From Sphacelaria rigidula (taxonomy: Eukaryota), in NCBI GenBank assembly GCA_964200075.2, contig CAXNAA020000042.1, positions 1 through 32,011 of the forward strand: a stretch of DNA of 32,011 nucleotides, written 5' to 3'. The translations under genes were made by a program, and so were the position numbers. The notes under the pieces were generated by a model. That model ran no database searches, was not told the DNA's origin, and saw only the letters and a list, made by a program, of their open reading frames with translations. This document shows positions 12,901-32,011 of the stretch, piece by piece. How positions within the stretch are numbered: the first letter of the stretch is position 1; each line of letters begins with the position of its first letter.

Positions 12901-15900
12901 ATTACACCACTTTGAAATCAAGTTATTCGTGTTACCATCCCAAAGCAAAGCAGTTCATATTGCACGGTGACAAAGCTACAGTCAACCATGTCACAATGAT
13001 ATATATCATATTCCTCCCCATAATACACCATGTCCAGTGGACGTTTGGGGCCTGATGATCCATGAGCAAACGATCGTGCACAACGTTGTTTGTACAGTAC
13101 CTGAAGAAAGCCACCCATTTGTTGCTCGCTAATGGACGCAAAATTCTGGAGAGTCAAGCCGTGCGGGGCAAGCGCATCCACCACCTGCTGTACCCTGGCG
13201 CCAGCCTACACGCGAGGCGGTCGCACGAGCAGACAGTAACGGCGTTTGAAGTCATACAAAGCTTTGTTCTCGCCGCATAAATTGTCATTGTCAGCACCAC
13301 CGCCTCACTGAACTTGGAAGATGCGATGTTTGACTGGTTAGATGTCCCTCACTGTTTCACGCCTACACCGCCAGACGTGGGGCATGTGAACACTAACTTA
13401 CGTAAACTCTAGTGTCGATTACGATAGTACTATCCGCCTAGATCCCAAAGGCCGGCCAGCGTCGTCCCTAGGCCTGGATGCACGGTCATAGGGTCACTTC
13501 ATCCCAAGCTTACTCAACTACTGTCGATTTATTCACGTGCTCAAGTTCGCGGCTACGTCTCGCTCTCTCTCACCTCTACGGTGACGGTACCTCGCGCCTT
13601 GTCCACCTCAAGAATTCGATCGCACTGACCTAGGGAAAGCATGGTGCCCTCACTCAGCCCACAGCCATTCGGGGATAGCGCGCTACCTACCACCCGTACG
13701 CTCTCGCCAGCCTCGTGAGCGTCTCTAATTATACGCTCCACCTGAAATCAACAACGATAACCGCACATTACGTATATGGTGAAAGTTCATTTTCCTCTAC
13801 GGACATCCTTGTCGTGGTGGGAGCTCTTCTCTTTTATGTATAATAGTAGTATCCTGTAATGAGGTTACGGTGCTGTTATGGTAAGCACGGGCTCGCTAGA
13901 CAAGGCAAGGGTCCAGTCCGCAGACTGAACAGCCAGGTAGGACAACAGCAACCGACTCACACAAGACGAGTTCGGCAAATACCAAATACCTCAGAATGAT
14001 CTCACACGCAGGTTGTATCTTCTTTATTATTTGGTTTCGACCTTCCAGGATCCACTCAATCAATCCAATCTCACGCTCAGTAAATCATTCTTACCATGGT
14101 AGACTTCTCGCTGAGAGAGAGCAGTAGATGGTAGTGTCAGAGGGTGGGGTTTCGTTCGTGCGAGGACAAACGAAGCCGACATCATCTCTGCAATATACAA
14201 GTTCACACTAGTACCTGACCAACTCTGAGCAGACCTGCAGTCTTAGATCCTAGAATACCCTAGATGCAAATAGCCGGACTCATCAACGGATCTGAAGCGG
14301 CATGGCAACAGGCTAACATGCGTCTTCATGACACTAACCCACCCAGACGAACCTTTATTACAGCTGCGAGGATTTATCCTCAAAGCAGCGGAAACCAAGG
14401 TTTTTTCTTTACCCGTAAAGAGCGGCTAATAAAGCATACCTAAGGAAAATAATTCCGTACCCAACAGTCCCGTACCCACTCCCACACCTCAAACGAAGGG
14501 AAGCATAGACTGCTTCGAGGAGCAGAAAAACTGCTCCGAAACGCGGGAGCATAAACTCCTTGTGCGTGCTAGCGATCAACGAAGAAGCATAGATTTCTTC
14601 GGCGTCCTAGCAAAAATTAAGGGGGGGAAACAGGGAGGTACAACAGGGAGCAGAGCTCTAACCTGGGGTAATCTAAAGGTACAACAGGGAGCAGAGCTTC
14701 AACCTGGGGGAATCCAAAGGTACAACAGGGAGCAGAGCTTCTACCTTGAGGAATCCAAAGGTGCAAAAATTGCAAGATCAGGAATCTGAAAATCGGTGAT
14801 CCAGCGAGATCGAGCGCCAGCCGCAAGGGGATATCATAGCTCCAGCAGTCGTAGATGTTGGTCGTCTTCAGTAATTCTTCGATCGTCGTCCGATGTAGGT
14901 CGCGCTATTGTGATGTCGTAGAAGAGGGTCGTGGTGGAGAAGGGAGGGCAAACAATGCTACAGAAAGGGCGTACTCATTTGTTGCTTGCCTTCGTCATTT
15001 GACCATTGACCACGCATCCCTTTCGAGACGGAGCACGATGAGTATGAGAAGGAATCCCAGATCGCTCCGAGATTTGAACCCGCGATCCAACCGTCAGGAG
15101 GTTTCGAAGCATGAAAAATAAAAAGTCGTGTTCGTGAAGCTTTAATTCTTCGCGTACCTTCGAAACCAAGTAAAGCCAAGTGATATTCGTGGGGTTCGGC
15201 AATACATTACACATCACACTTCCACGACGAGAACAAGACCAGACAAATACCAAAATGCTCTGCAATGCTTGCTCAATCAAGCTACAGAAAGGGAGGGGGG
15301 CAACAGTCGCGACGAAGGAGCGTGGTTCAAAGCGGGGCGTGGACGTCGTGGGTGTGGTCGATGTTGCGCTGAAGACCACGGCGAAGTCCTTTGGACTCAA
15401 GGCGCTGGAGGCACCAGGATCCGCATGGTGCAGATGAGCTGGTGGTGTATAGTGCTGGCCGGAGCTCGAGCTGTTTGGGTCCAGGGTCATCGATGAAGCG
15501 CACGATATATGTGTCGGCCGAAACCAGGTTAGCGGAGTGGGTCTGATCCAACCACCAGAGATCGTCGCTGCCTTCGAACCAAAAGTAGCTGCCCTTGGGT
15601 AGTATTCGCTGGTTTGCGAAGAACTTCGTCTTATAAGTCTTGGTGGGTACAAGGTTCGTAACCATCAGCGACGAAGCGTAGTCCCTGATCGCGGTGAAGT
15701 TCGCGGGCTGCTGCGCCACGACGCATGTTGCGATATTTCTCGTTGTGAGCAAGATGCTGATGTTGGGATTGCGTCCAATGTAGGAGGATTGCACCGCGGT
15801 GCAATTGAAGGTGGGATTCGCGTTCCCAAGACGCTCTCCGGAGACCGTGCCAGTGTATCTTATACACGACAGCGATTCTGCCACCTCGACCACGGGTTAT

Positions 15901-18900
15901 CTGGTGGCCGGAGATGGTGGACACGGTCAATCAAAGAGGCTCTTCCGTCATGTCGTCGGTTGTAACGTGGTAGGTCGGGGACTTGGTCGAGTAGCTGTTG
16001 AGAACATACTATGTGAGTCCGGCAGGCAGGTACTTGGGCATGTCACTTGTATCATGCGAGTTCGTGCAGGGTTTGCACCTGTGCACGGAGACGCGGGGTT
16101 TGGTGTCCTTGCCCCGGAAGTCGCGAGGCAAGTCGAGATAGAGCAGTTTATCACCAACGGCTTTATCATTCGGTGATGATGACGATGGTCCGACTGTCAG
16201 GATCTTGAATGGTCCTGTGCAATCGAGGGACAATTTTATCTTCAAAATTGTTTCGTTGGCTGCCTTGCTGGTGCCTTGGTGGGTGGTCGACAAACTGTTG
16301 TAGATCCAAACCCAATCACCAACTTTCCAGTTGGGGCGTTTGTGCATGAGGTTGTAGAGAGTAGTGTTAGATTTCTCCAGGCGCGAGGCGTTGATAGCGT
16401 GTTGTTCGCGCACGAAGGTAAACGCTTTGCGTTGTCGTGCATGCGCCAGCTCGTGGTAGGATATCTGGTCCTGATCCAATCCTTGGTGGCCGTCGAAGGT
16501 GTGTCGCTCAAAGACGGTGATGGGCAGCCGAGGGTAATGTCCAAGATGGAGTTCGCTCGGAGAAAGGCCTGTGGCGGCCTTAACCGAGTTGTTGTAGGAC
16601 AACATGATGTGCGAGATATGTAGGTCCCAGTCGTTTTGGCGGTCATTGATGATGTGATGAACTCTTTCGGTACCACCGTTATCGTTCGGATGGTCGGTGC
16701 TCGTGGCAATTTTGCGGATGCCCAGGAGCTTGTAAAGCACACCAGAGAGATCTGAGCAAAAGAACTGACCATTGTCTGAAAGGCGTCGCTTTGGGCAACC
16801 GTAGTGCTTAATGTAGTCGTCGACCAATATGTCGGCCGCTCCGGCGGCAGTGAAATCTGCAGCGGTTACCACGTACATGGACGCGTGGCGGCTGAAGCGG
16901 TCAGTGAAAAGTAAGATGTAGGTGTTGCCGCGACCTTTGGTCGGTAGAGGGCCAACTTCAAGGTGGCCTGGCTCGTTGGGGAGTCCCATAGAGATGACGG
17001 GCCACCGTACTGTCTGCCATGAAGTCTTTCGGGCTTGGCATTCGAAGCATCGCCGAATCCAGAAGCGGGTGAAAAATTCCATGCCAACCCACCAGTAGAA
17101 GCGTTCCATGAGTGTTAGCGTGCGGGTGACGCCAAGTGACATGACAAGTCTGTGTGGCAGCCTTTCATGACCCAGGGGCGCATTAAAATGGGACATATAT
17201 GCGCGTTGTTTCGTCGTCGAGTAGTCGTGCGTGGCGTCCCGTGGTTGAGACGGAAATTGTGCCTGTCAAACGCGTGGGGCGACGCACGAGTACTTGCACA
17301 CCTTCTTCCGAAAAGGGTGCCTTTACGCACGAGCTCGTATACGTCAGAAATAACTGGTGATGGCAGTGTGCCAACCAGGGCCAGAAGGGCGGATGGAAAA
17401 GGGACTGGACAGTCGAGTTGTAAGTACCGGATGGCTGCGCGACATAGCGGTTCCGCGTTTTGTTCGCGAGCCCAATCGCGGTGAGAGTAGCTGGCGAGAA
17501 ACTCGTGTAGTTGACCATCCGCTGGCGAGCCGACCGAACATGGTGAGGCAGGCGGCGGGGGAATAGGCGACGGGGTAGAAATGTCGACGTCAATATCTGT
17601 CCCGGGAGCAGGAGCTAAGCCGTCAGCTCCGTGCTCGCGAGCGGTAGATGTTGGCGGCGCCGTCATGGGCGGCGGGGCTGTATCAGTGCGCGGCAAAGAT
17701 TGTCCGTGGCGCGTGGTGCACGTTGCAGAAGTTTTCGCGGAGCGCTGTGAGTTGGTCCGTGGAACTTGTGCTGCGTGGCTCGTGGAATTTGCAGGTGTTA
17801 TCGGTGGCGGCCGGGCACTCGAGGTGGTGCGGGCGGCAGACCGGGAGCGAGTGTTGTCGGAGATTAGGTGGGTGATTGGAGGTGTCTCCGCGAAGAGCTT
17901 CGCGCGAGTACCGAAAGTGCGGGAATCGACAAAATCGGGGGTAGTGGGCTTTAACCCACCCAAGACGGCATCATATGGTAGAGGGCGAGGTCCTCCCATA
18001 TGCATACCAGTTTCCGGGCACTGCAGGTTGAGGGCGTGAACGGGCGTTGAAAAACGTCTAATCGCGTAAATTCAAGGTTCATCGGATTCCAAAGGTCCCT
18101 CCAGGTCCTATTAGGCTTCATTTTCCCGTATTTCCGGATACAAGCTTCGCCGTTGCACTTAGCATTTCTTGGTGTCACGCTCCTTTGATTAGAGCCCGAC
18201 GACTAGACACACTGCTCCTACCTTTTTGAGCACACAAGTTGCGTACGATTATCATGTCACACAGACATAACGCTGCCTCTTCCCCTCAATTGAGAAACCA
18301 ATCGCTTCGTCGGACACGAAGTAAAACCCCTGGCGGTTCGAAATCTTTTGATATGAGTGTCGCGTCACCTTCAACTATTCGCCGCACGTACGCGAGCGCT
18401 GTTCGATCTTCGGGATCTGGAGACCAACCTTCGAGCGATGCTCGTTCTTCGGGGCTTGACGACAAGACTATGACGCCGCGACCTGTTCTCTCACGTACCG
18501 ATTCGGACTCAGAGAACAGGCTTGTGCCACCGGCCGAGTCATTGGCTCCTGACAGACATGTCAGCGAACCCATAACGGTGGATCCCGTAGCACTCCCCTC
18601 GCTGCGGCCTGTTCTTCCGAATCCCGATGTGGAATCCGAAGTCAGGATTGTGCCCCCAGCCGAGTCGATGCCCCTGGACACACGCGCCCAGCTTGGCCCT
18701 GTAACGGTTGCTTCAACCGTGGCACCCCGTCGAACGACGATTGACAAATCTCGAGACGACTCAGTCCCGACAAAGCGTATCGCTTCTGGAGCAAGAGATT
18801 TTGTCACGCGGGCTTCTTCCGTTACGGACCCCCATCGCACGACTCTCGGCAGTCCCATGCGCCCTGCTGCGCAGTCCAATGTCGGACCAGCAGTCGCGGC

Positions 18901-21900
18901 CATGCATTCTGCCCTGCAGAATATGCATGACACTTCATCGGCGTCGGCGCACACGCCAGTCTCAGCTCTAATCGAGGCATTTTCGGCTTATGCCAGGCCA
19001 CGCTCCAAGACCAATGGACGTCTGCTCACGTCTGCTCACGTGCAATTCAACGATGATTCTGCACCCGCCACGCCCAAACCCGCACGTTTGGCGCCCCGAT
19101 CGGCGACATCGCGCCCTCCGTTCGTCTCTCATGAAAAAATCAACCAACACGAGTCTAGCCCCTCCTCCACTTCAAACCAAAGTCTTGCTCGCGCTCCTGA
19201 ACGGCGCCGCACACCGACAGTTGGTCACGACCACGTCACACGTGCTGGCAGTTCCAAGGACAACTCCCAGCACAGCTTGAATTCATCGCGCGTTTTCGCA
19301 CGCCCGAAGAATGTCGCTCATGGTCGCATATATGACGGTAGTTCACGACACAGTTCTAATTCATCGCGCGCTCCGAAGCGCTCGGTGAATGTCGACCGTG
19401 ACCGTACTCACGATGATGATTCGCGGCACAGATCAAGTTCGTCGCGCGTTCACTCGCGCTCGAAGAACACCGATCATGCAACCGCGCGCACCCCTCCTAC
19501 TCCGCATCCTTCACGCCGCCATCATTTACGCAATGATAATACTGTACATGCTGCCGACATCCAGAATGTATTTTCGGACATGTCACCGGCTCTTGAATCC
19601 TCAATTGGGGGATCCAGCCGTACTTCATCACATGACCGACGACCCCGCAATGACCGCGACCCGCCGCCCCGCTCTGATGCTGCGATTATCCGTTCCCTTC
19701 AACAACGATTGACAGATCTCGAGCGAGAACTAGCAAAGTCAACAATGGAGAACAAGAGAACCACCGCCGCTGCCGCCAAGATCACGGTGCAGAACACAGG
19801 CGTTATTGCAGCTGCTGCTGCCGCCACAACTGCCGCTGCCGCCGCTGCTACCTTGGCCGCTGCGCGTCCCGCCACGCCAACTACAGTCACGGCTCCAACA
19901 ACCGTTGCAGCCCCGTCTACCGTCGATACCGACGCAGATAGTGATCCAACCCCTGGCCCAGTCACGGATGCCCCCGTGCGCTCGCCCCCGTCTGTGGAGG
20001 ATCGGAGGATCTCCGTCCGCTCGGCGACGAGCATTGCCCCACTGGCCTCCTCTTGAGGCTGTTCCGGAACCGCCCCCGCGCGGAGCAGCTGATGCTCATT
20101 GAGGATTACGCCTCACAAGCCCCAGCACTTGCAAAAGATATCCTCGACCAACAACGAGAAGCTGACGCTGCCGCTGTCCACCTCCTTGTGGAGGAACACG
20201 CAGATAGGCAAAAGGATCCCCAGCGGCAGGCTTCCCACGCTGAATCCACGAATACGGCTGCCCAATGCGCGCTCCAGGAAGGTCGTACTGCTGCCATGGC
20301 GGCTCAGAGACGGGTGCGGGGCCTGGAAGATCACATCCGACGGACTGCTCACGAAGCGGCTACGTCGGTGGCGCGCTTGACCAACCATCAGGCCTCTCCG
20401 CCGTCCACCGGCAACCTGCTCAGTGCTCACCCTCCTCGCCAGCCTTCGGCCCAAACGGCCCAGCCCCAGACCGGTCAGTCATCTTACACTATCCCACGTA
20501 AGTCTGACCAACAGTCGTATGCTGCGCACGTGCGATAGTTATGTGCGCGTCGCATCTCTTCTAGATCTAAGCTGTCGACATAACGACATCAGTCAGTCAT
20601 CTCACAGAGAGCGACCTGGAGTTGGTGGGGTGGCCCGGAGATATACCCCACTACGATAAAACAACCTGGCAACAATTTGAGGGCGTGACAACTTCGCTTA
20701 CGGAGGTAAAACAGTAAACATTCCACCGTATTTATCTAGATTTGGCGGAACAAACGGCCGCCCACAAAAACGTTTGAACCACAGGAGAAAAGGTACCGCG
20801 TTCTTCTTTCGCGCCCTGTACGGACATTTGACAGTTTTACAAGCCACGAACCAGCATCAGCCATATCATACAGCGCAGCGAGGAGGAGGTGGGATAGCCT
20901 AAGGTGTCTTACAGCCGAAGATGCGGTACACAGCAATGGTCAAGGCAGTGTACGAATTCATGGGTAAGACCAAGATGGTGCTGTTTTCAAGCTATCTTGT
21001 ACAAAATATATATATCCTATGCAGATCCTTTACTTCGAAAATAGGATACTCGTGCTTCTTCTGCTTTGAAACACCGACGCCTTTCGGCGAACCACATGTA
21101 CTGGTACGAATTTTGAGCCTTTTTCATGTTGACAATAGTGTGTTCGTGCTTGCTCCAGTGTGAGGACGCCCAAGGGCAGGCATCATGGATCTCAGCAACA
21201 ACGAGGATCCCCGCATGGCTTCGTATATCCTGCTCTCTGTGATGTAGTGTGAGTACTCGTGCAATCAAGACTTCGATTATCCATCAGAAATGAAGCGCTT
21301 TCAAGAGCTCCAGAAGTCATACATCTACACCAACATCGCAAATGCTGGTACATGGAATTCTTACTCGCGCATAGTCACTAGAACACGTGCTGATACTATC
21401 GCCACTCCCCAGCCTGAACATCACCGAAATTTGAGTTTGAACCCCTTCCTCATTTTGCTCTCGTTGTTGCGACGACTGTTATTGTCGGACCACCCCCATC
21501 GCGTGTGCTAACGGTGTTGCCGTGTCGAAAAAGAGGGAACGATGACCGCCCACAGCAGGGTGCTCGATGCAGACGAGAAGGGACAACCGCGTGCGCGCAC
21601 ACTCCAGGAACAAACGTACACTGTTTCTTCTTGTTGAAATGCGGTACAACAAAGGCTCCATAGCGTACATCCGTCTCACCTCTTGTGTGGACTCCGGCTG
21701 CAAGTATGCCTTGGTCTTGACAGAGTGTGTTGACGACCAATTTTCAATCTCAACCTCGGAGGTACCATCTTCCGCGGCCTGTCCAAAACAAGACGGGAGG
21801 AGACTTTTTTTTTCGACAACACGGCGCAAGCACAAAACGCGACATGAGCTCGTACAAAGATCGATGGATGCTGGTGGACTTACACACAGCTAGCAGCCTC

Positions 21901-24067
21901 AGCTGCAGCATGCAGTTAAAACCGTTAGGATATTCTCGAAGATCCCAGCGTACATTAGAACCCAGCGGTTTTACGTGATATCCGGGCGGGATTCAAACCA
22001 TAAGTACAGTGCAGCATCGGCTGTCATTTTCAAAACTGTCGCCGGAGTAAGCGGGCAAATGCTGCGCTTGAATTTAGTGTCACTCTTGTCGCCACTCATC
22101 CGGAAGCAAGCACTGTAGGGTCAACCAACTCGACGAAGCATGAACTCGCACAGATGATGGGTACACGACTGCACGTTACCCTTGAAGTTAATTTGCGTCT
22201 TACCTACACAGCGCAAGGGAAGATGTTTCAGGATGTGCTGTGTGAGTAGAGCTATCGTCAACTCTCTGTGGGGTGTTTTGGCATAGTAGGTGCAGTGCTG
22301 CCGCCGTGCCCCGATGGTCTAACCTACCGGGGTATACTGTATACTGCATACTGTATCCCGGAGCCGGTTAGGGAAGAGTAGGGTGTTCGATTCCTAGCAG
22401 TAATTTTGTTTCTCGGGAGCGCAGTATCTGATTTGCGCTGGAGAAATTGTGAGGACGTTGAGTAGCATAAATAGGTCGTCGCTGTTGTTCTTAGACGAGA
22501 GTCGACGCGGTGCGGGAGAGCTCATGGTCATGATCCAATTGAAATACCAAAACGTAAGGCGTGCACCGGGAGAGAGATGGGTTGATCCCTCCCTTGAGAC
22601 TCGAGACTGAGGACTCGTTCCGAGAAAGACGAGCAGTCGGAAGTGTGGCGGAGAAAAAAGAGTGTGGGCGAAACGAACACTAAGGCTGGCATGACAAGCA
22701 CGGCGAATTCGCCGCACACGGATCTTGCTGGCGACTGTAGCTCTTGGGGTCTTGTGGCACACTTGCGGTTTGCACTGTTGCTGAATCCCAGACGTGATGC
22801 AGTCATCAGGTAGGTCGCTTGTAAACTGTAGCATGGTGTCGACAAGCCTTTTTTTTTTTTCGTGTTTGAATCTAAGCATGGCACTGTACGGTGATTGTTA
22901 CGGGCTGTACCGAGGCCAAATAAGGTACGCTGTGACGCCACAGTATTCACACCATTGTCCAATATACTTGGCGTTAATTGATCCGATTCGCGACGTGCAA
23001 TACATGTACTGCATGTCGGCAAACCTTTTGCAACGGACCGCCCATGATCCGTTGAGGGCGTGCATTCCTCTGGTGTTTCATTAAAACAACGTGGCGCTTT
23101 CGTATAGATAGAGGGCTGTGCATTTGATTACAGCATCAACAGCATAGCGGTATCAAGAACGGAAACGCCTAGGTTCGATCTGTACTCAAGTTCAAGTCAA
23201 AATACAAGATTTGGCAAATATCGGGCGCCTTTTCTGAGTTTTCAACCATTTTTCACGCCCATGGGCACGATCTCTCCGTATCTCCGCGGGAATAAGCGGA
23301 CTCTGATTTGGTTCAAGAGAGCGCTGTACCCACTATTGAAATGGTTGTTACGTATCACATTACATCTCAAGGAGGATATGCGGAATTTGAGGTTTACACC
23401 GCGTAAGGCGTGATTCGTTTGGACTTGACACAGTGCGCTGTGCTGCCATTTTCTGATCAATTTATCGGACATTAGCTGATACTCTGGAAATGCAGCCGTT
23501 GTCCCAGGATAGGAGTACTGAAGGGAAATAAAAAAGGCGAACACTTGCTAATGCAGAGGAGGCTCGACAAAGGGAGGACATGAAGAAAGAGGGCGAGTGC
23601 AAACAGAGTGAATTGAAAAAGCGAGAAACAGAACAAAACTTGAAAGAAAAGGAAACGAAATAAATAGAAGAGGAGGGGAAAAAGAAAAGAAGGGGAAGTA
23701 GAAAGGCGCGAAGATACGTCTTGTACCGGTCCCGCCAAGAACAAAAAAGAATGACCGACCCCCGCGTGATGGCTGCAAATAAGGAGGCCGTGCAAGGTAA
23801 AGCAAAAAACGAAAAAATGGGGCCGATACGCATGTACAAAATATATAGGCCGGGCGTTAATAGTCATGCACTGGCCTTTCCAGAGACAAGACTCGAAAAA
23901 AGTAGAAGCCAGCATATCAAAATTTTCCCTCTGATTATCTCACATTAGCTGATTGCAAAAATCCAGCCCGTGGTCAGGAGAAGCAAGAAAAAAACAGAGT
24001 AAGAAAGGAGGAAAGAAACAGAAAAAGACAGAAGCAACAGCCACAGAAAGGAAAGAAGAAATGAAGC

Positions 24068-24116
<49 letters not shown>

Positions 24117-24751
24117 GCAATAACAACAGCAAACAAACACACACACAACGCAAGCATAAACAACACAACAAGATGATTATCTCGCATCACGTAGCTGATT
24201 GCAACACTCCAGCTCGTGATCAGAAAAAACATGAAAAAAAAGTGGAGAAAAAAAAAAGGAAAAGAAAAACTAGAAGAACAAAACCTTTACAAAATAGCTG
24301 CTGTCACATGAGACGAGAGACAAATCCTTCTTCGCTCTGTGCTAAGCTCAGCGATCCCGCCGTGCACGTCCATCAACAGATGAAGCCGAAGGAGCTCCCT
24401 TCGAGGCAATGCGCGTAACCGACAGACAGATACCTACATGAGTCCTCTGCGGCCTACAGCAGGGCCGACTCGATCTTCAAGCACCTGCACAGGCTACACC
24501 AATAACATTTTCCTCTATACCTCGCACAGGGTCACACCAGCAGCAACGCCGCCCGCTACCGCCAGTTCAGCTAGACGGCGGAAGTCCCAGGATGACGAGC
24601 CTCCATCAGTCCCACCGCCGGGTAGATCAAGCAGTTGCTCAAGCTGTGCTTGTCGCTGCTGCTGGCCGAGGTGACATGTTTGAAAACGCGACGTCACCAC
24701 CAGGATCCGCGAGCGTCGCCCGAGCTGTGTGCTATTCCTGGCCGACCGCAC
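3783..24751 (-). CDS. GLDH: L-galactono-1,4-lactone dehydrogenase (mitochondrial, VAO/aldonolactone oxidoreductase family); 14 exons, 5' end incomplete
   Basis: Manual splice in transcript order: 24751-24521, 21778-21680, 13741-13574, 13205-13101, 12170-12036, 11561-11416, 11284-11194, 11072-11058, 10411-10271, 9902-9738, 8366-8244, 7838-7720, 7344-7258, 3912-3783. Total 1755 nt, phases consistent, no internal stop. Motifs in the expected order: NWSSTH, RVVGSALSPNG, LQNFASISEQQMGGFLQVGAHGTG, YMWIPYTD, ILGFECGGQQWVSE, PAPIEQRW, FSWVGIIMYLP, HWAK, LFDPKNI. Confidence 0.93.
5086..5118 (-). mobile_element. SINE 3' end with poly(C) tail, cut by the gap
   Basis: Reverse complement reads CAAGCAACAAATGAGTACG followed by a C run. 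Confidence 0.7.
5119..5127. other. Assembly gap (N run)
   Basis: 9 N bases. Confidence 0.99.
7258..7344 (-). CDS. GLDH: GLDH exon (R)YNCVDHWAKLEKP...RLRR(R)
   Basis: CAG acceptor, GTAAGA donor; HWAK motif. Confidence 0.95.
7720..7838 (-). CDS. GLDH: GLDH exon MFSWVGIIMYLP...KAKLWE(R)
   Basis: AAG acceptor, GTAATG donor. Confidence 0.93.
8244..8366 (-). CDS. GLDH: GLDH exon SELLRLIEE...PAPIEQRW...SPDT
   Basis: CAG acceptor, GTGAGG donor; Glu-x-Arg substrate-binding motif. Confidence 0.95.
9738..9902 (-). CDS. GLDH: GLDH exon VNEAEAEYWRRS...ILGFECGGQQWVSE...DLDYM
   Basis: TAG acceptor, GTGCGA donor, 55 codons. Confidence 0.95.
10271..10411 (-). CDS. GLDH: GLDH exon PLRELLLK...FADLRDRLLALGALDVEWIKK
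   Basis: CAG acceptor, GTGAGC donor, 47 codons. Confidence 0.92.
10649..10727 (+). mobile_element. 5'-truncated SINE copy with a C13 tail
   Basis: Aligns with the reverse complement of 14967-15035 (GCGTGGTCAATGGTCAAA...AACAAATGAGTACGCCC). Confidence 0.75.
11058..11072 (-). CDS. GLDH: GLDH 15-nt microexon (DARLH)
   Basis: Pyrimidine tract TTCTTTCTCCCCGCTGCAG, then GACGCAAGGTTGCAT, then GTGCGT donor; frame-preserving. Confidence 0.6.
11194..11284 (-). CDS. GLDH: GLDH exon (R)YMWIPYTDAVIVVRSNPMGLNDRLLRRATQ
   Basis: CTGCAG acceptor, GTAGGG donor. Confidence 0.92.
11416..11561 (-). CDS. GLDH: GLDH exon VGLGALGVVTEVTVKC...NKHV(R), ending at a GC donor
   Basis: CAG acceptor; AG|GCAAGC donor; phase 2 matches the next exon. 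Confidence 0.92.
12036..12170 (-). CDS. GLDH: GLDH exon VGAHGTGASIPPVDEQVV...DLFRMAK
   Basis: CAG acceptor, GTGAAC donor, 45 codons. Confidence 0.95.
13101..13205 (-). CDS. GLDH: GLDH exon AGARVQQVVDALAPHGLTLQNFASISEQQMGGFLQ
   Basis: TAG acceptor, GTACTG donor, 35 codons. Confidence 0.95.
13574..13741 (-). CDS. GLDH: GLDH exon VERIIRD...RVVGSALSPNG...GTVTVE
   Basis: CAG acceptor, GTGAGA donor, 56 codons; FAD-binding loop. Confidence 0.95.
13855..14466 (-). repeat. Putative 3' LTR (TGTTGGG...ATTACA)
   Basis: TG...CA ends; purine-rich GAGGTGTGGGAGTGGGTACGGGAC immediately upstream (14490-14467); AATAAA at 14028-14023. No second LTR is present to confirm the boundaries. Confidence 0.6.
14637..14759. 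repeat. 41-bp tandem repeat, 3 copies, in the retrotransposon 3' UTR
   Basis: GGTACAACAGGGAGCAGAGCT...AATCYAAA at 14637, 14678 and 14719. Confidence 0.95.
14970..15280 (-). mobile_element. tRNA-like SINE-containing insertion with a 13-bp TSD
   Basis: GCTACAGAAAGGG at 14957-14969 and 15281-15293; B-box-like GGTTCAAATCTC at 15080-15069; 3' end shared with two other copies. Confidence 0.75.
15330..18040 (-). pseudogene. Frameshifted pol 3' part: integrase (HHCC, DDE core, GPF), chromodomain and a C-terminal extension
   Basis: GCHTDLSCH / CFECQARK zinc motif, YILLFTDRFSR, LSDNG, NGGTERV, TGPFKI; chromodomain-like ISGHQ...YKIHWHGL...SWERE at 15930-15800; several frame changes. Confidence 0.88.
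18254..20538 (+). pseudogene. Long Ser/Arg/Ala-rich gag-like ORF of a probable second retroelement, broken by an 8-bp duplication; degenerate coding sequence may continue to about 21500
   Basis: The 605-aa and 161-aa ORFs fuse if one GGAGGATC (19996-20011) is removed. Intronless, antisense within a GLDH intron, with coiled-coil-like stretches and a PBS-like site at 18187-18201. No catalytic motif recognised. Confidence 0.55.
21680..21778 (-). CDS. GLDH: GLDH exon AAEDGTSEVEIENWSSTHSVKTKAYLQPESTQE
   Basis: CAG acceptor, GTGAGA donor; NWSxTH start of the FAD-binding domain. Confidence 0.92.
23462..24290 (-). mobile_element. Three head-to-tail 5'-truncated retroposon 3' ends
   Basis: Related terminal motif (ACxxGGCTG...TCAGCTA...GATAA on the minus strand) at 23462-23503, 23933-23976 and 24175-24222, each preceded by a T-rich tract. 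Confidence 0.7.
24066..24128. repeat. (CAA)n microsatellite
   Basis: Direct trinucleotide run. Confidence 0.97.
24521..24751 (-). CDS. GLDH: GLDH putative N-terminal exon (presequence plus hydrophobic segment)
   Basis: Open frame VRSARNSTQLGRRSR...RRLAELAVAGGVAAGVTLCE, then GTATAG donor in phase 0 with the next exon (CE|AAEDG). No in-frame ATG, and the acceptor is uncertain (exon start 24751 or about 24662). Confidence 0.55.
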
Positions 24752-25489
24752 CTGCACATAAGTCGCACATACTTTTCCTTTAGATCTCACGCTACAAATG
24801 AGAGACGTCGACAATGGACACCATAACACACCAGCACCACTTCACGCAGTCGAATGGCATCGCAATACAGATAATCACGAAACATTCAATACCCGAATTA
24901 GCGACTAAAATGGGGTGATACTCAGACGTAAGGTTACAATACTGCCCGAGCCACGCGTCAACGCTTGTGGTGCAAGTGCTGTTGTGTCACTGTATGTGTA
25001 AGGACCACTGCTTCTGGGTGGGAATAAGCAATCTTGAAAAAAGTAGCGTCAGCCCACAAAAGCTAGCGGAGATACTGCGCTTGGTACAAGTTGTGGTCAA
25101 GCGGTAATGACCAGTCGCAAGTGTTCTTGCCAATATCCAAGGATGCACATGAGTCTGAGGATGCATCAAAATGCAGCTTTTTTTTTTTGCGGCGCCGGCT
25201 CGCCAAAACAATAATTTTTCAGGGATTATTCTCCATACAAACAGGTGGTTTACGCCCTGACAAATAAGGCATGTCTTACTCTCTGCCTTGAAGCTCCTTT
25301 CAGGAAGGGTTTCCTGAGACGGTGTTGCTTGAAATGCCCCGATCTTCTCAAGGCACACAGAGGCAAGCGTAAAATGACGCCGTTAGTTTAGAACTCTTTC
25401 AAACCGGGGGCTAGGGGACACAAATACGTCGAAGGGCATTGGACACGTGATTTTCATCTACGAAACCCCTTTGAGGTCCCGTTTGAACG

Positions 25490-26034
25490 AGACAAAAAAA
25501 TGAGAATACAATGATGATGATGATGATGATGTTGATGATGACAAGGACGATATGACGGTTCACGATTTCATCATGACGAGATATCGGTCACCTTTCCTAT
25601 CGATGGAAAAAAAAACAATTATAATGAAGATACAATGACGGTAAACAACACGCAAACAGACCAAGGATTCCCAGCAGGATCATGCGCTAGGTGCATGGGC
25701 ATTGTTGCATGGCCGAAACGCGGACCACCTCCCGCACGAGGAGAGACAGCAACAGCGGCGGCAGCAGCATCTGCACTTCAAGCAGCTGTGTACGATTTCG
25801 GGTGGGATTGAATCAGCGGGTGCCGAGACTGTTGCTGCTGCTGCTCTTCCTCGTGCGAGAGACAGTCCGCGTTTCGACGGTGCGACAATTCACATGCACC
25901 TTGCGCACGATTGCCACCCTGCTGGGAATCCCTGGTCCGTACTAACCGCCGGTGTTGACGAAAAAGGAAAATTGAGAATGGAACGATGAGAGTAACAGTG
26001 AAATGACGGTTCACAACTTCATCATCACAAGATA
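25490..26034. repeat. Hairpin-containing repeat unit (about 455 bp), copy 1 plus the start of copy 2
   Basis: ATGACGGTTCAC...ATCAT...AGATAT at about 25552 and 26003; internal inverted arms at about 25659-25755 and 25830-25938. Confidence 0.8.
25512..25541. repeat. (GAT)n microsatellite
   Basis: Direct trinucleotide run. Confidence 0.9.
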
Positions 26035-26843
26035 TAAGGCGCGTCTCATAGTAGCACATTTTCCCCCATCGAATGAATGCGGTGGAAAACATTTTTTTCG
26101 ATATTATAGGTCCACCACATTTCTGTTCCTAGGTGGCTTCAACTATTTTCATAATTAGTGGCGTGCGGAGAAGAAGTAAAAAACAAGAAAGCTAAGCCTT
26201 TTCGATCGAAAACATGCGGTCGAAAGGCACAAAGGGGCACTTGACTCCTATCTTGCACACGACCACGCTAGATACCACCGTTCACAGAACCATGCAAATC
26301 CCACACGATTTATTCTGAGCTACCGTCGCAGCCTTGCAGCATAGAGCACGAGTACAGCACAGGGATAAATACACTACAGTACTTGGGTATGCTTTGTTCA
26401 TTTTTCGTTGGCGAAAACTTGAGCATCTTTCACGGTAGGGAGCAACGACGGAACTGCGTGGTACGGTGGGCGAACGACTCGCGTGCACGCTCATGGACAG
26501 TGCAGGCAGTACAAAGCTGCACGTTGTCCAAGTCCTTTTCACGTCACATTGTATTCAGGGAGAACAGATAGTCCGACGCTGTCTGTACTGCACGTTGCCC
26601 GCTTCTCTTTCACATCCTACCGTACGAAACATGCACACATACACTCAGACACACTGGATGCAAACAGTGCACAATACAGACTGTCTGTGCTGTACATGAG
26701 AGACCAAGTACCGTTTCACGAATTTCACTGTCTTTTTTCGATTGAAAGCTTGAAAATTTGCTTGGACCCGACTCGAGAAATTGAGCGAATTTCGCTCAAA
26801 TCAATCCCACCGCCCTTTTTTTCGATCGAATAAATTGTGCCAA

Positions 26844-27306
26844 GGCCACTTTTCATTGTTGAAAAAAAGTTGTTGAAAACTGTACTTTTGGCCTTTCCTC
26901 GTCGTTTTTCACCCGATAACAGGGCGAGGCGGATGATGGCACCTTGGAATGGCTTGCTCTACTCGTTGAGATCGTTCCAGGGCACCTTCGTGTTTTCCGT
27001 AGGCCGCGGTATTGTTTTTGGCCCAACTTGCATTTTCAACAACAAACGGTCAAGTTACAAAAAAAATGGCTGTTTTTCCACTATTTTTTTATAAGTTGAC
27101 CGTTTGTTATTGAAAATGCAAGTTGGACAAAAAGCAAAACTGCGACCTACGGTAAACACGAAGGTGACATGGAACGGTCTCAACGAGTAGAACCGGTCAT
27201 TCCAAGGTGTCGTCATCCACCTTGCCCTCTTATCGGGCGAAAAACGACGAAGGGTCAAAAATACAGTTTTCAAAACGATTTTTATTTCAATACAAAAGAA
27301 GTGGCC
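26844..27306. mobile_element. Fold-back MITE B (near-complete palindrome)
   Basis: GGCCACTT...AAGTGGCC ends; arms of about 225 bp around a short loop at about 27070-27078; flanks CAA and TAA. Confidence 0.9.
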
Positions 27307-27309
27307 TAA

Positions 27310-28545
27310 GGCTACTTCTTATGCATAAAAAAACAGGGTCAGAAACGCGTTTTCCGATAGCAGGCCAAAACCCCACTTCTTAAGTGATGCAGAAACGCGC
27401 TTTCCGATAAGAATTTTTCTGATAACATTTTCCAACAGCCCAAACTTATCAGAAAATCGTGATGTTCTGATAACCTTGGTTTATCAGTAAAATGTTATTG
27501 AAAAAGCGTTTGAACACACCCTACAGCCCACGACAACACCTGTGATGGCTTGGCTGCCACCACTACTACTGTTGTTGTTAGTGCTCGCGGGCATTCAGCG
27601 TGTTGCATCATTGTTCTTCGCTCGCCAGTATCGTGGTGGCCCTTTACCCCATGAGAACAGCACAGGGCAGGGGCGATGACGAGTGCTGTACAGACAGGAC
27701 AGTCTATATGTAGTCCGTACAATATTGTACATTAGTAGCTCAGTTCAGGTCTGTGCAGGCAGCGTGTTGCGAACACCCGTCGCAATACTTTACAGACTGC
27801 CCACGCACCCGAGCCTTGTAGAGACAGGACCGGGCTGACAGTACACACAAGACTATAAGATAGAGCTACTACTGTAGTTCATCCAATGCATACAATACAG
27901 TACTGTCTGCTGTACTGTTGTTCATGCTGTCCGTTTCATCGAGTACAACACGCGAACGGTGCAGCGAAATCGCAGATCAGTTCAGGTCTGTGCATGCAGC
28001 GTGTTGCGAACAGACATCCCTATGCAGTACAGACTGTCTACGCACCCAAGCCTTGTAGATACAGGACCGTACTGACAGTACACGCCAGACTTTGAATGGC
28101 GCTACTGTTGCAGTACTACAGCCAATGCATACGATACAGCATTGTCTGTACTGTTGTCCGTGCTCTCCGTATAATCGAGTACTACGGTGTAGCGAAAAAT
28201 CCCAACCGTCAGCTCTACAGTCACTTCGTGCAGCAAGGTGGTGTTCTTATTGCTCGTCTTGCATCACACAGCCCACCCTGTATTGCTCGGTCAATATATT
28301 ACAGTAGTGCAGACAGACAGTGCGGACCGTACACCACGACACGACAGCAGGATATTGTGTCTCTCTCGCGCGCCCCAGAATTTGAAATTATGCCCACACG
28401 TCTTGTAGAGAACGATGAACACTGATTTTCCAATGTTGATAGCGTCAATCACGTAAGAAGAGCTACTTCGAAAAATTATGTCGAAAAACGTGCTGTTGAA
28501 AAACGGCCGTTTTGATAACGTTTTTTTTATACATGAGAAGTAGCC
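27310..28545. mobile_element. Harbinger-like non-autonomous element C
   Basis: TIR GGCTACTTCTYATGYATAAAAAAA with TAA on both sides; internal 237-bp tandem duplication (27740 and 27977). Confidence 0.88.
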
Positions 28546-28548
28546 TAA

Positions 28549-29351
28549 GGGCGTGTCTTACAACGTCATTTTTCGATCGAAACAGCGCGGTGGAAAACAA
28601 GGGTTCCCATGTGATAGTTTGTGATTTAAACAATCATCAACATTACTTACGATAGTTCGAAGTCGAAAATGTGCGGTGGAAAAAAAAAACTCGATCTAAT
28701 AGGTCGATATTTCAACTGTCGTATTTCATGTTGACAAAAGTTTATATCACGACCTATCAGATCGGAAATCTTGTTTTCCACCGCGTCGTTGGTATACAAA
28801 ATTTGACTTCACGGCCGACGAGGGAAAGGGACTGCTGAACCCCTCTCGCGATATAAAATGAGGCAAGCACCGCAGAAGGAAGGTGGAGTACTGAAATAAA
28901 ATTAGTTAAAAATAATAAACTCCTGTGTTGGCCTTCCTCCTGTATGACCCGGGCTAATGCGCCTACATATACCAAAAGGTGTAGACTGGCGTTCAGAATA
29001 GATGGGATTACACACACAACACACACCGCATTTTTCCGATCGAAAATCAATGTGCCAAGGCCTATTATTATCAACATTGTTTTTTCATAGATCGCCGATA
29101 TTGTCAGGACTGGCATGTACCCGATTCTTATCAAATGCTTGCGAGTGCAACGGTGTATTCACAGGGCAGGGCATCTCTCCGAAGTGCTGCGTTGTAGTCC
29201 GAATTTTGCAGACTTTGTGGAAAATGGAGCTGCGGGAAAAAAAGAAGCCGCTTCCTTCTCGGAGAAGTCTAAACGCAGAGTCCGAAAATTCTCAAATTTT
29301 CTGATATGTCTGAAAAACCTGTGTCGATAGGAATGGGCCGAAGACACAGTC
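28549..29351. mobile_element. Harbinger-like element D (A/G family)
   Basis: Left TIR GGGCGTGTCTTA; subterminal TCGATCGAAA...GCGGTGGAAAA motifs; right end split by element E. Confidence 0.6.
29059..29339. mobile_element. MITE E nested in the right end of D
   Basis: Left end GGCCTATTATTATCAAC versus reverse complement of the right end GGCCCATTCCTATCGAC; flanks CAA and GAA. Confidence 0.65.
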
Positions 29352-29365
29352 TAGACGCGCCCTGA

Positions 29366-29730
29366 GGCGCCATTCCTATCGATGGGGAACAAACAGTGAT
29401 ACGAAAATACGATGACGGTAACAACACGCGAACAGGCCAGCCATTTCGAGCAGGGCGGCAATCACGCGCAAGGTGTATGGGCATTGTCACAGGTCGAAAC
29501 GCGAACCGCCTCCCGCACGAGAAGGAGAAGAAGCAGTACCAGCACATGTGTCCAGTTTGGGGGTGGGGTTAAATCAGCCGGTGCCGAGACTGGTGGTGGT
29601 GATGGTGATGGTGCTGCTGCTCTTCCTCGTGCCAGAGACGGTCCGCGTTTCGACCGTGCGACTACGCCCGCGCACCTTGTGCTCGATTGCCACCGTGCTG
29701 GGAATCGCTGGTCCGTACTACCCGCCGATG
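29366..29730. repeat. Remainder of hairpin unit copy 2
   Basis: Aligns with about 25588-25953, including both arms and the loop. Confidence 0.85.
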
Positions 29731-30559
29731 GGTCCATGCTTGCTCACTCGGCGAAGTGCTGGGACATATAGCTGTGTGCGTCTCTCTTCGGGAGCTGGGC
29801 ACGTCGGGTGTGTATTCCACGCGCGGCTACCGCTGGTGATGGGAAAGCCAGCTGTGCACCCAATGAAGAGTCAGGCAGGCTGCATTTGGAGCGGGACAGA
29901 TTCGCTCGGTAACTACCAGTCAGATCGCTCCATTTCGCTTGGGGATCGCCAGGGGAGTAGTCTAAAACCCAGTGTTCGTGCGGTCGAATCTCGTAGCGCG
30001 TTCCAACGCACTACAGTTTCATAGATAGTGCAGTATAGTACACTGAACACAATACAGAAGTACGGTACAGTACAGGCGCCCAACGCACGGCACCAGCAGG
30101 AGTGTCGCAGCAGCGGACAGCGCGTTTTTCGTCTTACGGAAGACGACACAGCCAACACACCCATATAGCTGTCAGCAGTGTGCGGCCAGCACTGCGTGCC
30201 GACTGAGATTGCTTTCTGCAGAGACGAACACTGCGACAATATCGCAACTCATGCAATCCAAATCATCTTCGCAATGCGTGAACACACCACAACAGTACAG
30301 ACAGTGGAAGCTCCAACACATGAGAGGGCTTGAATGTTTTTGCTGCGGTACAACAACTGTACAGTAGTGAAACATGACATGTTACAAGTTCTAGTCCTCC
30401 ATCTGATTTTGAAGAGGTCCTCAATTTTGGGCAAATGCCGAGTTTGAACGCTCGGCCACAGTCGCGCTTCTTTAAATTCACTGTGGGTTACCCCTATCTG
30501 TGTGTGGGAGGTTTGGCTTGTGATGCGGGCTTCGCCCGCAAATTATTTGTCCGGGTACA

Positions 30560-31020
30560 TCTTCATTTTGCCTAGAGTTGGACAGCCCATGCGTGACAAC
30601 CATATTATATCCCTTGCGCGTTCTCATGGGATTGTTTCTTCGCCCTCACTTTTTCTCAATGGGAATATACAAAAAAAGGGTACACCCTGGTACATCTGGA
30701 ACAAAAAAGGGTAACGCTTTTTCCGCTTTAGCGCGCGGCGCTACACGCGGGCTGAACACCTCAAAAACACGTTCCAGCGCCTCAGCCTCACGCTCAAGGT
30801 GTCTGGGCAGCATGCCCGTCCATTTTTTTTCATTTTCACAAGTGTTACTAGGCTGAACTACGGCGCCGAAAATGAGAGCTCGTGAGAGTACCCTTTTTTG
30901 TAAGCAAAACAGGAGGGTACACCCTGCCCTCTGCTAAAAAGTGATCTTGTACCCTTTTTTGTTCTCCTGTTGACCCTTTTCTGTCAAGTGTTGACCCTTC
31001 TCAGTCAAGTGGTGACCGTA
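30560..31020. mobile_element. Possible hAT-like transposon end with subterminal repeats
   Basis: AAAAAAGGGTA and its inverse TACCCTTTTT repeated; TGTTGACCCTT twice; ends GTGGTGACCGTA. Matching left end not found. Confidence 0.4.
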
Positions 31021-31031
31021 ACGCCGTCTGA

Positions 31032-31890
31032 GGTCGTGTCTTATCAAAAAAATTCGACTCGAGAACATGCGGTCGAATCGAATTGGTCGCTACGAGACCG
31101 TATCAGATACGTCCACGGTATTTGTGTTCTTAGATGACTTCAAGTCAGTTTATAGTCAGTTGCGCGCGACGGGCAGGGTCAAAAGTAGAACAGTTGAGCG
31201 TTTTCGAGCGAAACGAGCGGTGGAATAAACGAAGGGGCACGTATCTCATATGTTGCAGACAACCGTGCCAAATACTATCCTTTCACAGAATTACGCAAAA
31301 CCCAAATGGTTCATTCGCAGCTACCTACTCAACCCTGCGGTGTAGATCGCGACCTGAGCACAAGGAAACATACACTGCAGTAATAGGAAACCGACACCAC
31401 CACCCTCTTGGCACTATGTATTTCTTCTTGTTGGTGAAAACTTGGGCATCTAATTTTGTGGCAGGATCCACCGATTGAGTTGCGTGTTCAGGTGGGCGAT
31501 CGAATTGCGAACGCGCTCATGGACAGTAGAGGCGGTGCAAAACTGCACGTGTTTCAAATCTGCTTTGCATCCTCCAGTATGCAGAGAGTCAGAAAGCTGT
31601 GCTGTCTCTATGTCGCGTTGCCCGCTTCTTTCCCACATCGCGCTTGCATGCTAGGCAAAACACACACACCATCTAGACAGTACAGGCCGCCACTGTTGTT
31701 GTACAGTCTGTGCTGTCTGTACCGTACTGTCCATGGAATATAAGTATATGAGTACCGCTTCACGAATTACGCTGAGCCTTTTTAATTCAAAGCGTGCAAA
31801 TTCGCTCGAACCCAAACATAGCAAAGCGAACTGAATCAGTTCCGCCGCACGAACTCGTTCGAGTCGAAGAAAATTTGATGAGACACGGCC
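31032..31890. mobile_element. Harbinger-like non-autonomous element G with both termini intact
   Basis: TIR GGYCGTGTCTYATCAAA with extended subterminal symmetry; flanks C-TGA and TCA-G. Confidence 0.85.
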
Positions 31891-32011
31891 TCAGCACAAG
31901 TTACGCCGAGCAGCCACAACCATCACCATTTTTGGTAAAATTACACCCCACCAAAAAAGGTCGAAGCCCAACGACCAGAAGAGTGTAGCCCCCCTGTTGG
32001 TTAGCCCGAAG

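Follow-up and report, generated by a model that had tools for sequence, protein, structure and literature searches.

A train of probably PIF/Harbinger-type miniature elements in Sphacelaria rigidula, apparently grown by repeated use of a single TAA target

How can several different transposable elements come to stand end to end, with no more than a trinucleotide between neighbours? This question is raised by a 32,011-bp stretch of nuclear eukaryotic DNA from the alga Sphacelaria rigidula (contig CAXNAA020000042.1, positions 1 to 32,011; hereafter, the window), where a train of 3,325 bp (26038–29362) interrupts the second of two adjoining host repeats of ~450 bp, designated here H. The train is composed of five non-coding pieces in the order A1 - B - TAA - C - TAA - D - TAT - tail, edged by TAA and TGA, and its length is that of the five pieces plus three 3-bp spacers, minus a 4-bp overlap (Table 1). 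We believe, with moderate confidence, that it is a cluster of PIF/Harbinger-type MITEs (miniature transposable elements with inverted repeats), located in repeat-rich algal intergenic DNA, which grew by repeated insertion at one regenerated TAA.

Three of the junctions had been singled out in an earlier, sequence-only reading of this DNA, and their strings occur exactly as it described them: GGCC-TAA-GGCT (27303–27313), AGCC-TAA-GGGC (28542–28552) and GCCC-TGA-GGCG (29359–29369). In their wider context, the B/C junction (27297–27320) reads AGAAGTGGCC-TAA-GGCTACTTCTT, the C/D junction (28536–28560) reads AGAAGTAGCC-TAA-GGGCGTGTCTTA, and the junction between the tail and H (29352–29376) reads TAGACGCGCCC-TGA-GGCGCCATTCC. 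Within the train, a single trinucleotide, of the length of one target duplication, separates B from C (TAA), C from D (TAA) and D from the tail (TAT). The third string had also been taken for a contact between two elements with terminal inverted repeats (TIRs), which our analysis does not support, because the DNA to the right of 29365 is host repeat, with a paralogue at 25591. In the paralogous H copy, the DNA corresponding to that on the right of the TGA begins at 25586, also with GG.

The host repeat itself sets the limits of the train. In blast comparisons, the two H copies match at 25549–25584 versus 26000–26035 (86%) and at 25591–25954 versus 29370–29730 (73%), and from the first to the second match the offset of copy 2 with respect to copy 1 goes up by 3,328 bp, that is, 3,325 + 3. 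Being uninterrupted, copy 1 therefore acts as the train's paralogous empty site; the 3 bp in excess are accounted for by the TAA at 26035–26037 and the TGA at 29363–29365, at the train edges. This offset is also compatible with a single insertion of the whole block, and an alternative is that 26038–29362 is one outer element (GGCGCGTCT... / ...AGACGCGCCC) that received B, C and D at one internal TAA, or else a ready-made composite that moved into H. Outer flanks of TAA/TGA fit this alternative, as does the motif CGCGTCT found both at the left end of A1 and at the right end of the tail, while D and the solo element G, situated further right in the window, show CGTGTCT. Against it, A1 can be aligned collinearly with G over the full length, as far as the right terminus of G (26106–26616 versus 31107–31639, 67.6%; 26707–26769 versus 31751–31813, 76%), and its right-terminal 12-mer is identical to that of D (TGTGCCAAGGCC). 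The ends of A1 are GGCGCGTCTCAT on the left and, as the reverse complement, GGCCTTGGCACA on the right, where the terminus as read is ...GCCAAGGCC; GGCCTTGGCACA occurs exactly twice in the window. The sequence-only reading had viewed "A" as a single outer element enclosing B, C and D, a view that fails on these two features; A1 is a complete element and, therefore, we are dealing with a row of elements and not with a nest.

We compared the outer 70 nt of every end in alignments scored against shuffles (z), and the ends of the complete elements form two groups. Group I is formed by both ends of A1, D and G (z 3.2 to 12.2), with the left ends of A1 and D scoring 10.4, their right ends 12.2, the right ends of A1 and G 7.5, and the left ends of D and G 6.8; its consensus is GGNCGYGTCT. 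Group II is formed by both ends of B and C (z 3.9 to 15.4), including the two ends of B with each other (z 15.4) and the right ends of B and C (z 9.6), with consensus GGCYACTTCT. Allowing up to one mismatch, GGNCGYGTCTYA occurs six times in the window versus 1.65 expected, a count that none of 100 shuffles reached, and four of these six matches are ends of A1, D and G. Likewise, GGCYACTTCTY occurs five times versus 1.63 expected (3 of 100 shuffles reach five), and four of the occurrences are the ends of B and C. A de novo scan for 12-nt inverted ends starting with GG was too noisy to be useful; the one element it retrieved with matching T-N-A flanks was C, and the seed made it overlook G.

In group II, B ends in GGCCACTT(T/C)T and is a near-palindrome, with 167-nt arms (26899–27065 and 27084–27250) that are 86% complementary, whereas C ends in GGCTACTTCTYATGYATAAAAAAA, matches in 22 of its 24 terminal bases and is flanked by a perfect TAA/TAA. 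No Pfam domain was found in C, which contains an internal tandem duplication of 237 bp (27737–27949 versus 27974–28185, 80% identity). In sequencing reads, the interior of C is present in far higher copy than its ends, and so C may have captured, or grown around, another repeat. D belongs to group I, with left end GGGCGTGTCTTA, right end (reverse complement) GGCCTTGGCACA and flanks TAA/TAT.

The remaining piece, the tail, is different. Read in reverse complement (GGGCGCGTCTAGAC), its right end most resembles the left end of A1, and no TIR was found at its left edge. In the 70-nt comparison this right end matches the H flank only (z 5.5) and no group I end, which speaks against the outer element discussed above. 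An inverted match straddles the right junction of the train, between 29324–29339 (23 nt inside the tail) and the first bases of H (29366–29382); it comprises 13 nt at 100% and extends to 16 of 17 columns, GGC(G)CCATTCCTATCGA, with a score of 27 versus a shuffle maximum of 25. The same motif is also found at 25591, in the uninterrupted H copy. We considered the tail as an inverted copy of H and discarded it, because nothing aligns but that 17-column stretch (16 matches).

Tourist-like PIF/Harbinger MITEs are recognised by 3-bp T-N-A duplications, ends starting with GG, short bodies without coding capacity and high copy numbers. The elements examined here display a 3-bp duplication, GG ends, non-coding bodies of 463–1,236 bp and high copy number. 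None of the 87 open reading frames (ORFs) of 45–89 aa in the interval 25.5–32 kb matched a Pfam family at E ≤ 0.001, the sole sub-threshold match being Defensin_beta at a chance-level E of 0.01; those in the train among the 99 window ORFs of at least 90 aa had no Pfam match either, and Rfam gave no match in the window. The PIF/Harbinger ends GGGCCCGTTTGTTT, GGTCCTGTTTG... and GGGYCYGTTTGG... in Table 2 of PMC6327408 all start with GG and are associated with TTA duplications. Group I ends and those of that table have the frame GGnCnnGTnT in common, and group II ends coincide with them in GG alone. The sequence-only reading is supported where it saw Harbinger-like MITEs: the elements are non-coding, have TIRs of the form GG...CC and make T-N-A duplications of 3 bp. 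Judging from these sequence features, the train elements are probably PIF/Harbinger-type (Tourist-like) MITEs. It is improbable, in our opinion, that they belong to another superfamily of DNA transposons with 3-bp duplications: no transposase was found, group II ends have just GG in common with the published ones, and the duplications include TGA, TCA and TAT besides TAA/TTA, but group I ends fit the published frame, flanks are most often TAA, and the host repeat of G has TTA as its empty-site consensus.

Did the pieces arrive one by one, or does the train move as a unit? We placed contigs from four public runs on 24012–32011; the window was found in five of the seven listed runs, from two studies, where run X1, labelled as an alga-related metagenome, is from a separate study and runs X2–X5 may be the window's own source sample. 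When contig depths were summed along the bodies of A1, C, D and G, they came to about 1e3 to 1e5, a rough guide that is in places inflated by simple sequence, while single-copy depth in X2 was 58–79 (flank 67.5). Contigs of X2 with no differences and depths of 58–79 span 26037/8, 27306–10, 28545–9, 29062–6 and 29362–6. None of the contig pieces listed spans the A1/B junction, from which we draw no conclusion. The families are of high copy number, whereas five of the six junctions show single-copy depth, so the train has not itself been amplified as a unit. B, C and D are therefore not confined to a single composite; such confinement would, by the terms of the sequence-only reading, have been fatal to its proposal. 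Single-copy junctions also count against the outer element or composite that moved into H, although one cut-and-paste move would give the same result, and overall we regard that alternative as rather unlikely. Additionally, contigs of X1 span the B/C junction (27174–27567; 11 differences and 3 gaps in 393) and the tail/H junction (29259–29472) and, therefore, these junctions are older than the divergence of X1.

An independent view of the target is provided by G, whose ends, GGTCGTGTCTTATCAAA and GGCCGTGTCTCATCAAA, match in 15 of 17 positions, and which is flanked by TGA (31029–31031) and TCA (31891–31893). As had been claimed, G sits between C-TGA-G (31028–31032) and C-TCA-G (31890–31894); its left flank (31022–31044) reads CGCCGTC-TGA-GGTCGTGTCTTAT and its right flank (31880–31902) reads GAGACACGGCC-TCA-GCACAAGTT. 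Read contigs place G inside another high-copy repeat, other copies of which lack G. Three classes of G-less joints were found: from 31027 to 31890, skipping 862 nt; from 31029 to 31893, skipping 863 nt with a single T between; and from 31029 to 31897, skipping 867 nt with TAGTG between, which has the highest depth. The first skip equals 859 + 3, indicating that the insertion of G made a 3-bp duplication. The corresponding empty sites read ...CCGTC-TCA-GCAC... and ...CCGTC-TTA-G..., with TTA in the class of highest depth; that is, the target of G is C-T(T/C)A-G, independently of the ends of any other element. In X1, the consensus of loose ends behind 31891 (20 contigs, agreement 0.43) shows right ends of the G family followed by T-GA-GGGCCC, which is suggestive, though too mixed to count.

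The trinucleotides flanking G and the elements of the train are TAA three times (26035, 27307 and 28546), CAA, TAT, TGA twice and TCA; all conform to T/C-N-A/T and about half are TWA. Those flank positions that do not depend on element ends are C or G, as appropriate, in four of six cases (binomial p about 0.04 with a 25% background, by our own arithmetic), so that about six flank positions are at most suggestive of a C-TNA-G preference in the window. In maize, PIF targets a palindrome of 9 bp that has TTA at its centre, preceded by C and followed by G. PIF/Harbinger elements are credited in PMC2836001 with an extended target preference of 9–15 bp (9 bp for plant elements, 15 bp for vertebrate ones), and a preference beyond three bases, established for the superfamily, would explain a non-random abutment.

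We estimated how easily the abutment could result from chance, since a transposon-dense "graveyard" whose elements need only TAA/TTA might produce adjacent elements by itself. Everything from ~25.6 kb to the end of the window is repetitive, as such an explanation would have it, and CC-TNA-GG is not enriched window-wide: it occurs five times in 32 kb, versus about eight expected from length and even base use (our own arithmetic), and three of the five are the three junctions. Nevertheless, after removing C the block of 5.2 kb contains 76 TAA/TTA sites, three of which are C-TWA-G, and C occupies the one site lying between two elements (1/76); after removing B and C there are 67 TAA/TTA sites, about two of which flank an element (2/67). 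Under uniform use of TAA/TTA, the joint chance of both placements is about 4e-4, again by our own arithmetic. Moreover, the six pieces contain 70 TAA/TTA sites, none with a recognisable TIR insertion, and the independent target of G is also C-T(T/C)A-G. We conclude that the abutment is somewhat more orderly than chance, and that mere adjacency in a repeat graveyard, although its case is helped by the imperfect flanks listed below, is an unlikely explanation.

According to the repeated-insertion reading, a single TAA inside H copy 2 would have been used time and again. Each insertion would duplicate three bases and so leave one copy on either side of the newcomer, and a later element, of the same family or of another with the same kind of target, would enter one of those copies. 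C would be the youngest member, because its TAA/TAA is intact and its ends are the best matched. We infer that a target preference extending beyond three bases, to about a C before and a G or GG after T-N-A, is what brings the elements together, and that the GG...CC ends of the elements would rebuild this wider target. The C-TNA-G rule and the landing pad proposed in the sequence-only reading are, accordingly, hypotheses. A bolder version, which we put forward tentatively and think doubtful as a whole, is that GG...CC ends combined with a 3-bp duplication rebuild a palindromic target, that element edges would in this way be hot spots for unrelated families, that trains would grow from one TAA, and that collapse of GGCC-TAA-GGCC might fuse chimeric MITE families.

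Several observations weigh against the repeated-insertion reading. A1 and B are not separated by any trinucleotide; instead, the terminal GGCC of A1 is the initial GGCC of B (26844–26847). The simplest repair of the model would be that the missing spacer reflects a later 7-bp collapse of GGCC-TAA-GGCC, possibly fusing two MITEs (26836–26854). The tail is one-ended, so that at least one deletion or some other process is needed. A perfect duplication is found in C alone, since the flanks are CAA/TAA in B, TAA/TAT in D, TAA/TGA on the outside of the train and TGA/TCA in G; together with two misfits to the extended motif, an A at 26034 before TAA and a T at 29066 after the TAT of D, this weakens that motif and favours chance adjacency. 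Neither a DDE_Tnp_4 transposase nor a Myb/SANT-like domain was present among the ORFs scanned in the window, and no autonomous element was obtained. In searches for further copies, a metagenome scan with GGCCTTGGCACAN{3,8}TTCGATCG gave seven loci, none with blast similarity to the window, a search of genome contigs with an 18-base internal motif gave only nine bacterial chance matches, and motif scans of viral contigs gave two chance matches, then 0 and 0. Lastly, the chance estimates are post hoc, for a window picked as unusual-looking.

Table 1. Location of the train, the solo element G and the host repeat H in the window, with the basis for each delimitation.
Feature	Position	Strand	Basis
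A1, complete group I element, 810 bp	26038..26847	+	Collinear with solo G; end alignments
B, group II palindromic MITE, 463 bp	26844..27306		Arms, end alignments, junction string
TAA common to B and C	27307..27309		Sequence
C, group II non-coding element, 1,236 bp	27310..28545		Inverted ends, TAA/TAA flanks
TAA common to C and D	28546..28548		Sequence
D, group I element, 514 bp	28549..29062	+	Pattern, 12-mer, end alignments
Tail, one-ended piece, 297 bp	29066..29362	-	Sequence, end alignment
TGA between tail and H, counterpart of TAA 26035–26037	29363..29365		Sequence, blast
G, solo group I element, 859 bp	31032..31890	+	End pattern; host-repeat copies without G
H copy 1, uninterrupted paralogue/empty site for the train	25549..25954	+	Blast and direct repeats D7, D11, D14, D18
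H copy 2, left part, ends in TAA 26035–26037	26000..26037	+	Repeats, blast, junction printout
H copy 2, right part, begins GGCGCCATTCCTATCGA	29366..29730	+	Blast; high summed contig depth

As for the host repeat, its two units can be drawn at 25475–25965 and at 25935–26037 plus 29366–29736, spaced about 450–460 bp, and each contains a long internal hairpin (arms 25679–25756 and 25834–25911, 78% complementary). Sequences like 29366–29730 are of very high copy in the reads, and H copy 1 is near single copy at 90% likeness. We also evaluated H as an element with canonical Harbinger ends and rejected it, because GGNCCYGTTTG was found at chance level in the window (n = 6 versus 3.9 expected; 23 of 100 shuffles reach six), with its sole exact match at 25475.

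The train had been situated just upstream of a GLDH gene, which proved incorrect: the only GLDH exon found (12921–13205, minus strand) is more than 12.8 kb away, with an integrase remnant in between, and there is no demonstrated link between the two. This exon matches FAD_binding_4 (E 0.0024), and in the PDB it is closest to L-galactono-1,4-lactone dehydrogenases (E 3e-14, residues 91–126); the gene is intron-rich and one exon was identified. The gypsy-type integrase remnant (16012–17265, minus strand) contains Integrase_H2C2 and a weak rve, and an atlas search with the ORF named a gypsy integrase; beside it, an open frame of 608 aa in G+C-rich DNA (18230–20053, plus strand) had no Pfam match. 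Elsewhere in the window, a TIR element at 1286–2074 has 34-nt ends that are 94% complementary (TACTTCCTCTGTACC...), resembles Stowaway-type MITEs with a TA duplication, and includes 29-bp tandem repeats (1486–1739). Arrays of 42-bp and 41-bp tandem repeats and an A+T-rich low-complexity stretch lie among 5264–6433, 14636–14766 and 4400–4720, and a run of nine N (5119–5127), an assembly gap, falls inside a possible 1-kb TIR element (4249–5254).

How does the train compare with known systems? Tourist-like MITEs and their PIF/Pong/Harbinger partners, such as mPIF/PIF in maize and mPing/Ping/Pong in rice, are, like the pieces described here, short, non-coding and of high copy number, with ends starting with GG and a 3-bp T-W-A duplication (PMC6327408). 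An extended target preference is likewise known for PIF/Harbinger (PMC2836001), and in the train it is suggested by about six positions. Here, by contrast with maize and rice, an alga is the host, TGA, TCA and TAT occur among the flanks, and no partner transposase is seen in the window; in addition, group II ends (GGCYACTTCT) bear no likeness, beyond GG, to the ends listed in PMC6327408. MITE multimers are also known: adjacent and nested Tourist and other elements occur in maize and rice, involving more than 10% of 6,600 rice MITEs, and were described in 2001 by Jiang and Wessler, according to a review (PMC5172404). As in the train, these multimers consist of MITEs beside or inside MITEs through independent insertions (PMC5172404).

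For other transposons, McGurk and Barbash (2018; PMC5932611) describe how an insertion preserves its target and generates a second one, with tandem P-element dimers that have one 8-bp duplication between them, and they cite dimers of R1 and of bacterial insertion sequences (IS). Neighbours in those double-insertion dimers (P element, hobo, jockey, R1 and bacterial IS) are, like those of the train, one duplication-length copy of the target apart, but in the train they come from different families, with two groups of end sequences. Furthermore, the duplication in the train is only 3 bp, so that a wider motif must come from the element ends, a step that is absent from the passages of PMC5932611 on these dimers. 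A few phrase searches, of incomplete coverage and with the key 2001 papers outside them, did not turn up any publication in which the ends of Harbinger elements or MITEs are said to rebuild the target. The idea of a self-regenerating target is already in print (PMC5932611), and the train is most likely a known kind of event; what goes beyond the published passages is the mixed-family neighbours and a wider motif rebuilt by GG...CC ends, given a 3-bp duplication.

In all, the train as it stands is a clean algal example of the repeated use of a single target, and not a new mechanism. If the target logo were confirmed genome-wide, it would provide a sequence-level reason for the multimers and islands of Tourist-type MITEs, and the double-insertion model, built on same-family dimers of flies and bacteria, would then cover mixed-family trains with a 3-bp duplication as well.

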